Source: Eledone cirrhosa
Lineage: Eukaryota
Direction of reading: 5' to 3'
Length of the DNA stretch: 64,000 nucleotides
Assembly (NCBI GenBank): GCA_964016885.1
Contig: OZ024747.1
Span: 79,360,001-79,424,000, forward strand
Both the position numbers and the translations under genes were made by a program. Each line of letters opens with the position of its first letter. Positions within the stretch are counted from its first letter, which is position 1. Of this stretch, positions 8,952-54,720 are shown in pieces. The notes beneath the pieces were generated by a model. The model was not told where the DNA came from, did no database searches, and saw nothing but the letters and a program-made list of their open reading frames with translations.

Positions 8952-9182
8952 TATAAGGAAAAAAGATGAAATCGAAAATGCAACTGGAGTCTTATTTTTT
9001 TAAAAATATATATATTTATTTGGTTCCTTTACCGGTTTCGCAGTTCTTCTGCTTTTCAAAAGTAGAGTTGAGATGGAGGGTCTGTGGTTTTTCTCACAGA
9101 TGTAAAGGAACCAAATAAATATATATATATATTTTTAAATAAGACGCCAGTTGCATTTTCGATTTCATCTTTTTTCCTTATA
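8952..9182. mobile_element. Inverted repeat (arms about 80 bp) with a degenerate HHR on the minus strand at 9027-9062
   Basis: Minus strand: CTT-TTGAAAA-GCAG AAGAA CTGC-GAAA-CCGG-TA-AAG; core has two transitions from CTGAAGA. Confidence 0.6.
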
Positions 9183-10258
9183 TATATATATATATATATA
9201 TATACGTACACATATAAATATATATATATATATATATATATATATATATATATATATATATATATATATATATATATATATATGTGTGTGTGTGTGTGTG
9301 TATGTCTATTTTTGTATATGTGAGTGTATGTATATGTGAGTGTATGTATGTATGTATGTATGTATGTATGTATGTATGTATGTATGTATGTATGTATGTA
9401 TGTATGTATGTATATGTTGCAGTACTAACTTACTTTCCGGATTCAAATCTTTCTGTGGTCAATAAAGTATGTACTAATCAAGTACTGTCGATCATTACCA
9501 TTCCTTCCAGCTACCTATGTATGTGTGTGTGTGTATGTGTGTGTGTGTGCATGTGTGTGTGTGTGTGTGTGTGTGTGTGTGTGTGTGTGTGTGTGTGTGT
9601 GTGTGTGTGTGTGTGTGTGTGTGTGTGTGTGTGTGTGTGTGTGTGTACGTGTTAACGATATATAATAAAATATTATTGATGTCTGTGAAGCTAGTGAAGA
9701 TCAAAGATTGACTAAAATCACCGCCACACTAACAAGTATCACTATACTAACCACCAATCAAAAACATTGTTTTACAGTACACACACACACACACACACTC
9801 ACATACACGCACTCTCATCCACACACATACACACACACACACACACACACACACATACACGCACACACACATACACACATACACACACACTCACACACAC
9901 ACACTCATACACACACTCACTCACATACATACACACACACACACTCACACCCACACATACACACGTACACACTCGAATACAAACACAATTATATATATAT
10001 ATATATATGCACACACACACATAGATGCACTCCTGCAAAGTGTGATATTCATCCTAACAACTCACAGACGAACAATTACCAGTAATATAACGATAGACGC
10101 CACCAGACCTTTTTATGTTTAAATATATATATTTATGTATGTATAACAATCAGCTTGAATTTTAGTTAAATTCGGCGATTTTAATTGAGATCAAAGGTGT
10201 TTTGATCAAAGATATCTTCTTCTTTCTATTATTTCTCTTTAATTTTACATGGATGTTG

Positions 10259-10411
10259 GTGAACACCAACAGACCTAAGATAGAGACATCCTGCCTTTGA
10301 TCCATCACCGAGTTGGGATCACGTGAACACCAACAGACCTAAGATAGAGACATCCTGCCTTTGATCCATCACCGAGTTGGGATCACGTGAACACCAACAG
10401 ACCTAAGATAG
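10259..10411. repeat. 64-bp tandem duplication (about 2.4 copies)
   Basis: GTGAACACCAACAGACCTAAGATAGA starts three times. Confidence 0.9.
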
Positions 10412-10467
10412 ACATCCACGTGATGTACGACCTGTTCTTTTACAACCACTTTTTAAACATGTTTCAA

Positions 10468-11268
10468 AGGTGGCGAATTGGCAGAGTCGATAGGATGTCG
10501 GATTAAATTTCTTGATATTTGCACCGGCTCACTCCTAGTTCAAATCCTGCCGGGGTCAATTTTGCCTTTCATCCTTTCGAGGTCGATAAATAAAGTACCA
10601 ATCCAGTACTGAGTATAAGTCTATTTCTTTTTATCATTTTCTTTCGCTCTCTCTCCTTTTCTGAAAGAAATCGGCTGTGTTCATACCTGCAATGGGATGG
10701 GCATCATCAGGTGTAAAATGCCCCGAAACACCGTTTGTCTGGACGGTGCTTCAACGACCCCGTCTGGAGTTAAGGTCCCTTTCTTTTCGTTTCCTTTCCT
10801 TTAAACACTCCCTCCCCTCAACACTTTAATTCATAAGTTGGACGTTGATCGAACAACTAAATGATGATCATCAAAACCAAGGGATGATCCATCAGCTTAA
10901 CCTTCTGAGTTCAAATCCCGCCAAGGTCAAGGTTTCTTTTCATCCTCACGGGTTTAATAAAATAAAGTACCAGTTACGTACTGAGGTCAATATAATCGAC
11001 TTTTTCTTTCCTTTCCGAAATTGCTGGCCTTGTGTCTAAATTAGAAATGAAGGGCGGCAGATTGGCCAAATAGTTAGGTCGTCAGACAAGTGCTTAGCAA
11101 TATTTGTTATGACTCTACGTTCTGAGATAAATTTAGCCAAGGTCAACTTTGCCTCTAATCCTTTCAAGGTCGACAAAATAAAGTTACGGTAAAATCTGGG
11201 GTCGATAATAACCACTTTCTCCTCCCTACAAATTGCTGGTCTTGTGCCTAAATTAGAAATCATTATTT
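10468..11268 (+). mobile_element. Cluster of three older SINE family A copies (10468-10613, 10903-11048, 11051-11268)
   Basis: Diverged A/B boxes, TTTCATCCTT..GGTCGA.AAA.TAAAG body and TTGCTGG.CTTGTG.CTAAATTAGAAA end. Confidence 0.8.
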
Positions 11269-11974
11269 AAGAGGTTTCAACATCTGGGGACATATACCCT
11301 AAAGAAGATACACGGATGGAATGTACTGGAATGTACTGACTTCCGGTCTATATTACAGTCTGGGCACGTCGGGTAAATAGTACACTGCATATCATGGACA
11401 ATGGTAAAGTGTGTGTGTGTGCGTGTGTGTGTGTGTGTGTGTATGTTTATGTGTGTCTTTGTGTATATATATATATATATATATATATATATATATATAT
11501 ATATATATATATATGTACATGTATATATATATATATAGTGAAAGCAGGTTTGTATGTGCCTATATATATATACCTTTCTATACCTTTCATTTATATATAT
11601 ATATATATATGTATATATATATATATATATATATATATATATATATATATATATATATATATATATATATATATATATATATGGGGGAAATCGGCAGTTA
11701 GAAACGTCGGATAATGTTTACCGGGTATTCGACTGAGCTCTCTGCACTCTGGGGCAAAACTACTACTACTACTACTACTACTACTACTACTACTACTACT
11801 ACTACTACTACTACTACTACTACTACTACTACTCTATTACCATCTTCATCGCCCCAAAAAATTAATTATGTCTGATTACACCACTAAAGTACCAGTAATG
11901 CACTGGGTAATTGCTGGCCTTGTGCCAAAAGTAGAAACAATTATATATATATATATATATATATATATATATAT

Positions 11975-12341
11975 ATAAAATATTTAAAAAATAATGAATA
12001 AAACAAAGAAACAGTTCCTTATATTAAACAAAAAAAGTTCATTATTTAACGATCGTTTCTAGGACATATATGTGTTAGAATTGGCATGCATATTCAAAAG
12101 ATCTATGTACAAAATTATACAAACTATCAAGGAGAATATACATTTCTGAAGACAGCATATATATGTGATGGTATGTATATTCTCCTTGATAGTTTGTATA
12201 ATTTTGTACATAGATCTTTTGAATATGCATGCCAATTCTAACACATATATGTCCTAGAAACGATCGTTAAATAATGAACTTTTTTTGTTTAATATAAGGA
12301 ACTGTTTCTTTGTTTTATTCATTATTTTTTTAATATTTTAT
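11975..12341. repeat. Near-perfect inverted repeat, arms about 169 bp, 29-bp spacer, abutting (TA)n
   Basis: 11975-12143 is the reverse complement of 12173-12341 with about one mismatch. Confidence 0.95.
12142..12272 (+). ncRNA. Candidate type-I HHR with about 104-nt stem II
   Basis: ATTT-CTGAAGA(12146-52)-[long hairpin]-GAAA(12257-60)-CGATCG-TT-AAAT; palindromic stem III ACGAUCGU. Confidence 0.6.
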
Positions 12342-52511: not shown

Positions 52512-52664
52512 GGAGAGGTTTGAGAGAGGTTTGAGAGAGGTTTGGGAGAGGTTTGAGAGAAGTTTGAGAGAGGTTTGGGAGAGGTTTGGGAGAGGTTTCA
52601 GAGAGGTTTCAGAGAGGTTTGAGAGAAGTTTGAGAGAGGTTTGGGAGAAGTTTGGGAGAGGTTT
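52512..52664. repeat. 11-bp tandem GAGAGGTTTG(A/G)
   Basis: Tandem periodicity. Confidence 0.9.
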
Positions 52665-52894
52665 GCCAGCTATTTCTAGCAAGCCGAGCAATCAAGTCGT
52701 AACTATCGCGAAGTTATCCTTTCATCCATCCATCCATCTATCCACGGTCCTTTATTCTTGATGGAATTTGAGGCATTTAAACCTGGCGGATTCTGCCCCC
52801 TTCCATGTCTGAAAACAGTCAATTTTTCCAGAGAAATAGAGAGACTAAGAGAGCAAGAGAACGAAAAAGATGAAGTGAGAGAGATATATAGAAG

Positions 52895-53050
52895 AAGAAT
52901 CGATCATAATACAGGACTGGTATTCTATTTATGGAGCTCAAATTGATGAAAGGCAAAGTCGATCTCGGCGAGATTTGAACCTCAGGGCGCAGAGAGACGG
53001 AACAAATATTGCAAAGCATTCTATCCAACGTTCTAACGACTTGGCCACTT
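52895..53050 (-). mobile_element. Older SINE family A copy
   Basis: GATGAAAGGCAAAGTCGATCTCGGCGAGATTTGAAC; a similar old copy lies at 50958-51078. Confidence 0.75.
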
Positions 53051-54279
53051 TAACGGCTGAGCTGCGGAGTTATAGGAACGGCTAATTTGTATAATCAAAA
53101 GACTTCACCGCTTCTCACAGATAATTGTGACACTACTGTAAAAACCAAAAGCCACACAATAGGATCACAGAGCTGACCTTTAACGAAGGACTGCCTTAAA
53201 GTTAAGGACAGCGGTGAGTTAAGGAGCGGGAGTGGTTTCAACTTTAACAGAAATGTGTGTGTGGGGGGGAGGAGGGGGTTCTAAAGAATAAATATATGTG
53301 TGTGTGTATGTGTGTGTATGTGTGTATGTGTGCGTGCGTCCTTGTGTACGCCTGTGTGTACGTATGTGTGTATGCAAGCGTGTGTCTATATGTGTGCATA
53401 TGTGTGTATATTCACAACCACATACAATGACACATGCGCACACAACTATATATATATATATATATATATATATATATATATATATATATAGAGAGAGAGA
53501 GAGAGAGAGAGAGAGAAAGTTGTGTGTGTTTGTATGTATGTACATATATATATATGTATGTGTGTATAATTTATATATGTGGGCGCATATATATATATAA
53601 ATGTAATCTGACTTTTTCGAATATTAATAATAATATTCGATTCGTTTACAATTATGCAAACAACCCTCATTTTTAAAGCCTTATCAGTAGAATGAGCCCT
53701 TCATTTAAAAATTTATATATATATATATATATACAATAATTAGGTTTAATCTAAGAATATAAAATATATATATTGATAATGTTACTCAACAAAGAAGCTC
53801 AGAGCATTAATTGTACAAATTTAAACGATATGAATAAAAAAATGTTTCATATATCATTGATATATGAAATATATATTATAAATATATATATGTACTAGCA
53901 GTAATACCCGGCGTTGCTCGAGAATGTGATTACTCAGTCGTTGGATAATTTCTTGGAAAAGAATAATGGGGATTCAGCATAATTATAATATTTGAAACAC
54001 AATTATATTCTTTGTAATAGAGATACACAGTTAAAAAAATATTAATATATTTATTTAATGTGTTTTTCAAAAAATTAAATGGATCGGAATCCAACTTGTG
54101 GCTCACACAAGACATGATCGACTGCCTCATCAGGTGGGACGACTTCATCACCAACAAAGAAATCCGTCAACGAACCCACAAACAACGTGTGTCTAACATA
54201 ATCTGCAAACATCAACTTGGCTTCCCATCTCTCTCTCTCTCTCTCTCTATATATATATATATATATATATATATATATA

Positions 54280-54500
54280 TAGGAACGAGTAGAACCCCGA
54301 CGGCTGAGCTCAAGCCGTTTCGACGGCTAATTCTGGACTATTCCAGAATTAGCCGTCGAAACGGCTTGAGCTCAGCCGTCGGGGTCCTACTCGTTCCTAT
54401 TACCCACTCTACTACCCTCAATACTCAAAGTACTCAATACTTTATTGAGTACTTTGGTGCGTTATGGTCCACCTGGTTCCTTACCACATTTCCTTCGTTA
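54280..54500 (+). mobile_element. Family B fold-back element (palindrome 54280-54399)
   Basis: TAGGAACGAGTAGAACCCCGACGG... and ...CCGTCGGGGTCCTACTCGTTCCTA. Confidence 0.9.
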
Positions 54501-54675
54501 TATATATATATATATATTTTTTTTTTTTAAATAAATATTTGCTCTAGGGTTCTTATATCTTTATCGAGCTCTCTTTGGATTTTAGTCTTCACATTTATTA
54601 TTATTACTATATATATATACATATATATATACATAGAATTCACAAGATTCAAAGGTATGTTCAAAGCATTTATTC

Positions 54676-54720
54676 ACTTACAATTGTTTCATCCAAACCT
54701 AGGATTGAAGTCTTCGGAGC
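54676..54720 (-). ncRNA. Degenerate HHR
   Basis: Minus strand: GCT-CCGAAGA-CTTCAATCCTAGGTTTGGAT-GAAA-CAATTG-TA-AGT. Confidence 0.45.

Follow-up and report, generated by a model that had tools for sequence, protein, structure and literature searches.

Conserved palindromy of stem III, probably not a partner code, in minimal hammerheads of Penelope-like elements from Eledone cirrhosa

What are self-complementary stems III kept for in hammerhead motifs that reside together in one genome? The question is raised by a stretch of 64,000 nucleotides from Eledone cirrhosa (the window; assembly GCA_964016885.1, contig OZ024747.1, positions 79,360,001 to 79,424,000), in which ten such motifs carry ten different palindromes. 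The initial annotation took these for a self/non-self code, whereby single motifs stay silent and cleavage occurs only in a dimer with a partner bearing the same palindrome. The first part of this proposal is already in print: for the minimal hammerhead ribozymes (min-HHR) of Penelope-like elements (PLEs), the available part of the report by Cervera and De la Pena (2014, PMC4209133) describes a palindromic loop-less stem III, a dimer model, no cleavage of the single motif in vitro, and low cleavage in vitro even for dimers; a further published basis for double hammerheads is given in PMC6155905. Neither the palindromy nor the dimer model is new, and the window is a dense and correct example of the published motif. 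Further work on the min-HHR of PLEs was reportedly done by Lunse et al. in 2017. As for the code, no discussion of partner specificity was found in the available part of PMC4209133, and a literature search of limited coverage found no hammerhead partner code in print. We consider it likely that the motifs are min-HHRs of PLE ends whose palindrome is kept for a double fold, and that the incompatibility of families is a by-product and not a selected code.

The ten palindromes were confirmed to the nucleotide, each at stem III and spanning A15.1 to U16.1 of a hammerhead core (Table 1). Core, stem II and U-H site are present in all ten motifs, with C at core position 4 in one and a U3-A8 covariant in another; stem I measures 3-8 bp (7-8 bp in four motifs, 4 bp in four, 3 bp in two). 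As judged from the sequence, they can be assigned to the minimal type I hammerheads of PLEs. The short stem I of the 12260 copy derives from a family arm of 10 bp that was cut by an inversion. The motifs at 23181 and 35182 have identical stem I arms and are therefore not independent, and the inverted copy beside the latter, being on the opposite strand, cannot partner it in one transcript. Among the 22 family copies in the window, 15 are perfectly palindromic, two more pair via G-U and five do not pair, so that the earlier statement that nearly every motif is palindromic holds for the ten listed motifs but is too broad for the window. Same-strand copies of one family lie at least 2 kb apart. 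A long frame at 50828-52378 is a translated minisatellite. A non-LTR metazoan retrozyme was rejected, as no head-to-tail array of 150-450 bp lies over a motif among the 150 of 191 TRF rows listed (to ~47.5 kb).

Table 1. Hammerhead motifs and related copies in the window. Motifs are named by the first position of their palindrome; "further copy" denotes copies absent from the initial list.
Position	Strand	Feature	Stem I	Stem III	Remark
8461..8586	+	further copy, long-stem-II lineage		disrupted by insertion	lineage has three palindromes genome-wide
9027..9062	-	min-HHR, U3-A8 core	3 bp	6-nt palindrome 9031-9036	16-17 family copies in sample
~12030-12143	-	inverted 5'-truncated copy			adjoins 12260 motif, cuts its stem I 5' arm to 4 nt
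12142..12272	+	min-HHR, ~104-nt stem II insert	4 bp	8-nt palindrome 12260-12267	young PLE family
14360..14405	-	further copy, decayed (mutated core)		non-palindromic purine-purine centre in family	abundant family
15396..15453	-	min-HHR	4 bp	8-nt palindrome 15401-15408	
18796..18842	+	min-HHR	7 bp	8-nt palindrome 18827-18834	
22633	-	inverted 5'-truncated partner of 23181 motif			
23127..23197	+	min-HHR	8 bp	GC-centred 8-nt palindrome 23181-23188	
23501..23534	+	further copy, 36496 family		palindrome broken by CpG-type change	
33450	-	truncated relative of 46863 motif			
34958..35019	-	inverted copy of 35182 motif			
35137..35198	+	min-HHR	8 bp	alternating A/U 8-nt palindrome 35182-35189	
36469..36504	+	min-HHR	4 bp	4-nt palindrome 36496-36499	
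37938..37976	-	min-HHR, decayed	3 bp, from ~5 bp	6-nt palindrome 37942-37947	
39602-39634	+	decayed inverted copy of 37942 motif		palindrome lost	
46014..46076	+	further copy, 35182 lineage	core-proximal pair lost	self-pairs only via G-U wobble	
46855..46948	-	min-HHR, 61-nt stem II	7 bp	8-nt palindrome 46863-46870	
47029	+	truncated relative of 46863 motif			
47995..48040	+	further copy, separate family		odd-length, 9 nt, central mismatch	
48893	-	truncated relative of 46863 motif			
54675..54721	-	min-HHR variant, C at core position 4	4 bp, two G-U	8-nt palindrome 54680-54687	

A descriptor free of any stem III condition gave six matches in the window, five of them palindromic, and 23 matches in 1.064 Mb versus 3, 4 and 3 in three shuffles. 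The PLE min-HHR type is further marked by an extra nucleotide following A9 and by a G10.1-C11.1 pair, and the descriptor left room for a bulge. Rfam returned no match in the window at the gathering score, and the 150 Rfam E-value matches listed were of microsatellite-driven miRNA/snoRNA type, none a hammerhead. Hand curation of 1.65 Mb (0.06% of the genome) and of targeted loci yielded a family table of 39 entries. Clusters were left out when most of their members failed the descriptor and inspection revealed no hammerhead; also left out were the mis-anchored duplicates F15, F17 and F27, the artefact parses F55 and F56, two small families whose stem I measured 2-3 bp, and 97 singletons apart from three that had outside copies or a clear structure. 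All energies were summed from nearest-neighbour terms and disregard tertiary contacts.

What is conserved across these families is palindromy, not a given stem III sequence, and the tabulation of stems III suggested in the initial annotation bears this out. Stem III is perfectly palindromic in 24 of the 39 entries, pairs with G-U in seven and with a single mismatch in three; the other five do not pair, three of them resting on 1-2 copies that may be decayed. The central four bases of the 23 lineage-level 8-nt stems pair in 17 cases (Watson-Crick) or 21 (with G-U), against an expectation per stem of 0.073 and 0.148, respectively (binomial P ~1e-15, for hand-curated entries that are not fully independent). 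The long-stem-II lineage was searched with the 4-nt centre left free (3,330 pattern matches), and 95 of the 100 copies listed are palindromic by hand count, three palindromes accounting for 64, 23 and 8 of them. A tree of 34 copies of this lineage, built with stem III left out, needs three changes for four states, which is the minimum: two compensatory double changes and one single decay, with one switch on a branch as short as 0.023 changes per column and one palindrome kept across many subfamilies. Same-strand pairs at most 8 kb apart among the 100 listed rows have the identical subfamily stem in 14 of 14 cases, three with a single decay. Palindromy is nevertheless absent from a PLE family represented by 22,110 pattern matches, where the centre is purine-purine and none of the 100 listed copies is palindromic, and from a second family with a 9-nt stem (six copies in the sample).

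The window motifs probably sit in the mostly truncated 3' ends of many PLE families. No PLE ORF was found inside the window by tblastn. In L104, two direct repeats that are 99% identical and 5,230 bp apart, with a motif in each, flank a 715-aa ORF (P0001). The Atlas clusters nearest to this ORF (score 0.97-0.96) contain HTH_animal, RVT_1 and GIY-YIG families, and the ORF of the 12260 family is 39% identical to P0001. ORFs of the purine-centre family match GIY-YIG at an E of 4.6e-5, above the curated cut-off, and RVT_1 at 7e-4, below it. Pfam gave no match at E <= 0.01 for P0001 and five other PLE-like ORFs, and a PDB sequence search with PLE-like ORFs gave no useful match; the P0001 clade is assigned to PLEs, provisionally, on Atlas clusters, motifs read by eye and element structure. 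A pseudo-LTR location beside a PLE ORF was found for the 12260, 54680, L104 and purine-centre families and, at a single locus apiece, for the 23181 and 35182 lineage; of the ten listed families this covers four. Within 7 kb, 89 of 204 sampled copies are accompanied by an inverted copy of their family and 31 by one on the same strand. Full elements and tandem insertions hold their own matching partner in cis.

From these results, a mechanism may be proposed in which the palindrome is likely retained since a tandem transcript could form an active double hammerhead only if its two identical copies shared a loop-less stem III. The motif lies downstream of an ORF with RT and GIY-YIG and is duplicated in the pseudo-LTRs of the element. 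By hammerhead topology, each core would be composed of the catalytic strand of one copy and the cleavage strand of its partner, and hence both stem I and stem III would pair between copies. Explicit double-hammerhead folds of this kind, with stem I inter-copy, are predicted to lie 12-20 kcal/mol below two single folds for all three window motifs tried. Such symmetry would require self-complementarity and not any given sequence, so that stem III could shift by rare compensatory transitions, likely via G-U intermediates, and would tolerate G-U pairs, a single mismatch at the centre or tandem purine mismatches, the last of which the 22,110-match family apparently copes with. The usual partner would be the second pseudo-LTR of the same element, in cis.

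It is very unlikely that the palindrome serves RNA pairing for some other step, for instance to join two element RNAs for template jumping or for the formation of tandems, cleavage then being weak or of secondary importance. The low published activity of PLE dimers, the in vivo role of PLE hammerheads, called unknown in the literature, the success of Naiad PLEs without hammerheads, and the odd cores or very long stems II of several families here would fit such a role; however, A15.1 and U16.1 delimit the palindrome exactly, and all 39 entries retain it alongside the core and a stem I that co-varies, which is what the double-hammerhead fold needs.

A selected code, under which co-resident PLE families are driven to differing palindromes and cleave only with their own kind, appears still more improbable, and as a general rule it is largely refuted. 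The claim that unlike palindromes cannot pair stands for the ten motifs, stem III heteroduplexes being predicted unfavourable in 45 of 45 cross-pairs, and by the same kind of prediction stem III would exclude 687 of 725 pairs formed across lineages; as the basis of a general code the claim fails on palindrome sharing and on stem I. Stem I also pairs across partners, which had been overlooked, and therefore separates most families by itself: it is predicted to block 41 of the 45 window cross-pairs and at least one half of the double hammerhead in 682 of the 725 cross-lineage pairs (median of 2 x stem I -15.4 versus -10.5 kcal/mol for stem III). Stem III is not irrelevant to partner choice, since besides rejecting all 45 pairs it is the only predicted barrier, with a penalty of 6.3-12.5 kcal/mol, between sister subfamilies of two lineages that have identical stems I and different stems III. 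The switch on a short branch and the precedent of the HIV-1 DIS palindromes, which bias RNA co-packaging according to the available part of PMC3187697, also speak for a code. Against it, three diverged subfamilies of the 35182 lineage, and likewise one pair of dissimilar families, are predicted to be cross-compatible in both stems, and a single palindrome was retained by many subfamilies in the tree. Moreover, the one-palindrome-per-family pattern, true among the ten motifs picked, does not extend beyond them: the 54680 palindrome occurs in five lineages, that of 35182 in three, and those of 12260 and 37942 in two each, with no similarity found by blastn (E <= 1e-3) between representatives sharing a palindrome. 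The 14 sharing pairs of unrelated lineages among 17 entries are as frequent as a base-biased draw predicts (14.7) and far above an even draw (2.1), which leaves no over-dispersion, and the sharing may partly stem from deep common descent invisible to blastn. Non-palindromic consensus stems, which the initial annotation had named as evidence against its proposal, occur in the 22,110-match family. Because unrelated families share palindromes and one very abundant family has none, a code of family identity is not supported. A narrower version, that a stem III switch in a lineage keeping its stem I isolates the ribozyme of the new subfamily from sisters and non-autonomous hitch-hikers and is favoured for that reason, as in HIV-1 DIS, seems to us unlikely; if true, ribozyme compatibility would separate retroelement subfamilies within one genome.

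Least probable of all is monomer cleavage, with 2-3 bp, a short loop, perhaps a protein aid, and an incidentally palindromic centre: in invertebrate retrozymes, hammerheads whose stem III has 2 bp and a tetraloop do cleave as monomers (PMC7229834), and families with 9-nt stems, one of them with a non-pairing centre, could form 3 bp and a 3-nt loop (+0.4 kcal/mol), but the centre pairs in 21 of 23 8-nt entries, compensatory switches fall in the would-be loop, 4- and 6-nt stems allow one pair at most, and the published single PLE motif did not cleave.

If, as we favour, the palindrome is kept for the double hammerhead, the failure of unlike families to pair would be a side effect, and a redundant one, of the divergence of both stems. 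The genome supplies natural pairs, with the same or different stem I combined with the same or different stem III, to probe partner choice in double hammerheads: 23181 and 35182 have a common stem I but unlike stems III, the 35182 and L068 families, like the 12260 family and the L207 subfamily, have a common stem III but unlike stems I, and the 54680 and L183 families are compatible in both.

Among known systems, the HIV-1 DIS (available part of PMC3187697) is likewise a 6-nt self-complementary RNA of lineage-specific sequence that biases partner choice (~45% versus 20% hetero-pairs). Unlike the PLE motif, whose partner would usually lie in cis, DIS acts in trans as the initiating contact; in PLEs, stem I is a longer second helix that also pairs between partners, and palindromes are common to unrelated lineages. 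A DIS-type code, with the palindrome as lineage mark and main pairing determinant, does not describe the present motifs, given the 14 sharing pairs and the stronger stem I. The double hammerheads of ASBVd and of the satellite retrozymes of newt and axolotl (Forster et al. 1988, cited through PMC6155905 and PMC7229834) combine an elongated stem III shared by two tandem copies, weak or no monomer activity and a palindromic loop, as is proposed for the window motifs; they differ in being short head-to-tail repeats with canonical loop-loop contacts, whereas the window motifs are dispersed PLE ends. The closest likeness is to the PLE min-HHRs as described in the available part of PMC4209133: a type I core including the U3-A8 variant, a very small stem III that is palindromic, numerous families of diverse sequence in each genome, whose copies are mostly single and truncated, pseudo-LTRs in tandem and inverted arrangement next to RT and GIY-YIG ORFs, and a dimer model. 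In contrast to that description, stem III measures 4-12 nt in the present set, inserts in stem II reach ~116 nt, three entries have C at core position 4, the centre is purine-purine and non-palindromic in one very abundant family, and three palindromes were followed within one lineage.

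The ten stem III palindromes reported by the initial annotation were all located exactly where it had placed them (10/10; the motifs are named by window start: 9031, 12260, 15401, 18827, 23181, 35182, 36496, 37942, 46863 and 54680). In standard hammerhead numbering, each palindrome runs from A15.1 to U16.1 of a minimal type I hammerhead, with the cleavage base and then a stem I arm following. Stem I measures 7-8 bp in four of them, 4 bp in another four and 3 bp in two; an inversion removed most of the 10-bp stem I arm of 12260, 37942 is decayed, and a C occupies core position 4 in 54680, as it does in all 12 fetched loci of its family. 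The motifs are real, were correctly seen, and are additional members of an already known kind. The view that nearly all have a palindromic stem III held in part: a search with family representatives found 15 of 22 window copies perfect, two pairing via G-U and five non-pairing. A descriptor imposing no stem III condition recovered six motifs in the window, five of them palindromic, and 23 motifs over 1.064 Mb, against 3-4 in shuffles, only 5/23 being strict palindromes; the window (positions 79360001-79424000) comes from an animal genome of 3.0 Gb that is rich in microsatellites.

In several families (for example, loci L168-L179 and L204-L233) a very long stem II insert of 80-116 nt separates an intact core from stem III, and these escape short descriptors. 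In three of the 39 curated family or subfamily entries, every one with the 54680 palindrome (L192-L203, L166, L183), C replaces the U of core position 4; the 54680 family adjoins ORFs of Penelope-like elements (PLEs), and this core variant is a putative hammerhead.

Further features in the window
Feature	Position	Strand
Long stem II insert	12146-12256	
Copy with C at core position 4	54717	(-)
Purine-centre family (22,110 matches), decayed copy	14371	(-)
Purine-centre family, probable second copy	49092	(+)
Related repeat copy; first core segment hammerhead-like, stems III and I not recognisable	10710	(-)
Related repeat copy, as preceding	50859	(+)
Rejected candidate: 516-codon open frame, a translated 60-bp minisatellite whose Pfam matches are repeat artefacts	50828-52378	(-)

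The motifs belong to PLEs, a link shown for six families or lineages. At locus L104, two direct repeats, 99% identical and 5,230 bp apart, each carry a motif and enclose a 715-aa ORF, whose nearest Atlas clusters bear HTH_animal, RVT_1 and GIY-YIG families; a Pfam search of this ORF gave no match. Motifs in PLE-like ORFs that we take to be those of RT and endonuclease were read by eye. The ORF of the 12260 family is 39% identical to that of L104, and for the 54680 family and the 23181/35182 lineage related ORFs end 1.0-1.4 kb upstream of motifs. No PLE-type ORF was found within the 64-kb window, which holds truncated PLE 3' ends, many in tight inverted pairs, a known PLE pattern (PMC8557442). 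A family copy within 7 kb on the same sampled piece was on the opposite strand for 89 of 204 copies and on the same strand for 31, both being undercounted in 10-kb pieces. The 12260 family is very young, its approximately 40 best genome matches being 99-100% identical (L168-L179, L257, L258, L262-L264), with many inverted pairs spaced 0.2-6 kb around pieces of PLE ORFs. Two short elements, L210 and L216 (~0.74 and ~0.99 kb), have two same-strand direct repeats with a motif and no long ORF; they are probable non-autonomous PLE derivatives which could form double hammerheads in cis.

Across families, palindromy rather than sequence is conserved. Motifs from 1.654 Mb (the window and 159 stretches of 10 kb) were clustered and curated into the 39 entries, in which stem III is a perfect palindrome in 24, pairs via G-U in seven, is odd-length with one central mismatch in three and has a non-pairing centre in five; the centre pairs in 21 of the 23 entries with an 8-nt stem III, far above chance. 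Compensatory change was observed in a lineage with a single common stem I: with the 4-nt stem III centre left free, 3,330 matches were obtained, and among 100 listed, counted by hand, 64 had the 54680 palindrome, 23 that of 12260, eight a third, GC-rich one and five single-change variants. In a tree that omitted stem III, these states fell into three groups joined by two compensatory double transitions. Such constancy of palindromy across entries, together with these transitions, means that the check proposed initially succeeds. The conservation is already published: PMC4209133 describes 15.2-16.2 and loop 3 as palindromic and the families as diverse, and gives a dimer model, no cleavage by a single motif and low cleavage by dimers.

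The further proposal, that each family has its own palindrome as a self/non-self code, has several observations against it. First, 14 pairs share a palindrome among 17 lineage-level perfect 8-nt entries, where drawing evenly from 64 would give 2.1 such pairs (P = 3e-5) and drawing with position bias 14.7; since the code predicts fewer shared palindromes, not more, the excess over the even draw counts against it. Blastn between representatives with the same palindrome found no similarity, and deep kinship is possible. Secondly, a very abundant PLE hammerhead family (loci L266-L272) with 22,110 pattern matches, adjoining RT and GIY-YIG ORFs, was palindromic in none of 100 listed copies counted by hand; non-palindromic consensus stems were named at the outset as incompatible with the code. 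The centre of its 6-nt stem III is purine-purine in 100/100 of these copies, in three variants (A-A 78, G-A 18, A-G 4), which from the sequence would form tandem purine mismatches in the dimer in place of a palindrome.

It follows from hammerhead topology that stems I and III are both inter-copy in a double hammerhead; U16.1, H17 and position 1.1 lie on one strand, and therefore a shared stem III entails a shared stem I. Explicit nested double-hammerhead structures, with stem I inter-copy, were 12-20 kcal/mol below two monomer folds, and median homo energies were -15.4 kcal/mol for two stems I and -10.5 for stem III. Stem III is predicted to reject 45/45 cross-pairs of the ten window motifs, in agreement with the idea that unlike palindromes cannot share a helix, and stem I 41/45. 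Of 725 cross-lineage pairs, stem I is predicted to block 682 in at least one half and 619 in both halves; of the 38 that stem III is predicted to permit, stem I blocks 36. In two lineages with a common stem I, the predicted barrier comes from stem III alone (6.3-12.5 kcal/mol), as for 23181 and 35182, 12 kb apart on the same strand. Other subfamilies of the 35182 lineage are predicted to be compatible in both stems, thus displacement is not the rule even there.

As to the supply of partners, which also bears on the code, same-strand pairs within 8 kb among the 100 listed copies of the three-palindrome lineage were of the same subfamily in 14/14 cases, as expected for pseudo-LTRs copied from one template. 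We infer that cleavage would occur only as a dimer, in tandem transcripts, that isolated copies would be silent, and that the stem III palindrome would drift neutrally. The code fails as a general rule but survives, with low probability, as a narrow case for sister subfamilies with a common stem I. A partner code for hammerheads was not put forward in any paper listed by our literature searches, which also covered PMC7229834, PMC6765202, PMC6466107, PMC2837043, PMC7761336 and PMC6155905. A precedent for partner choice biased by a palindrome is the HIV-1 DIS (PMC3187697).
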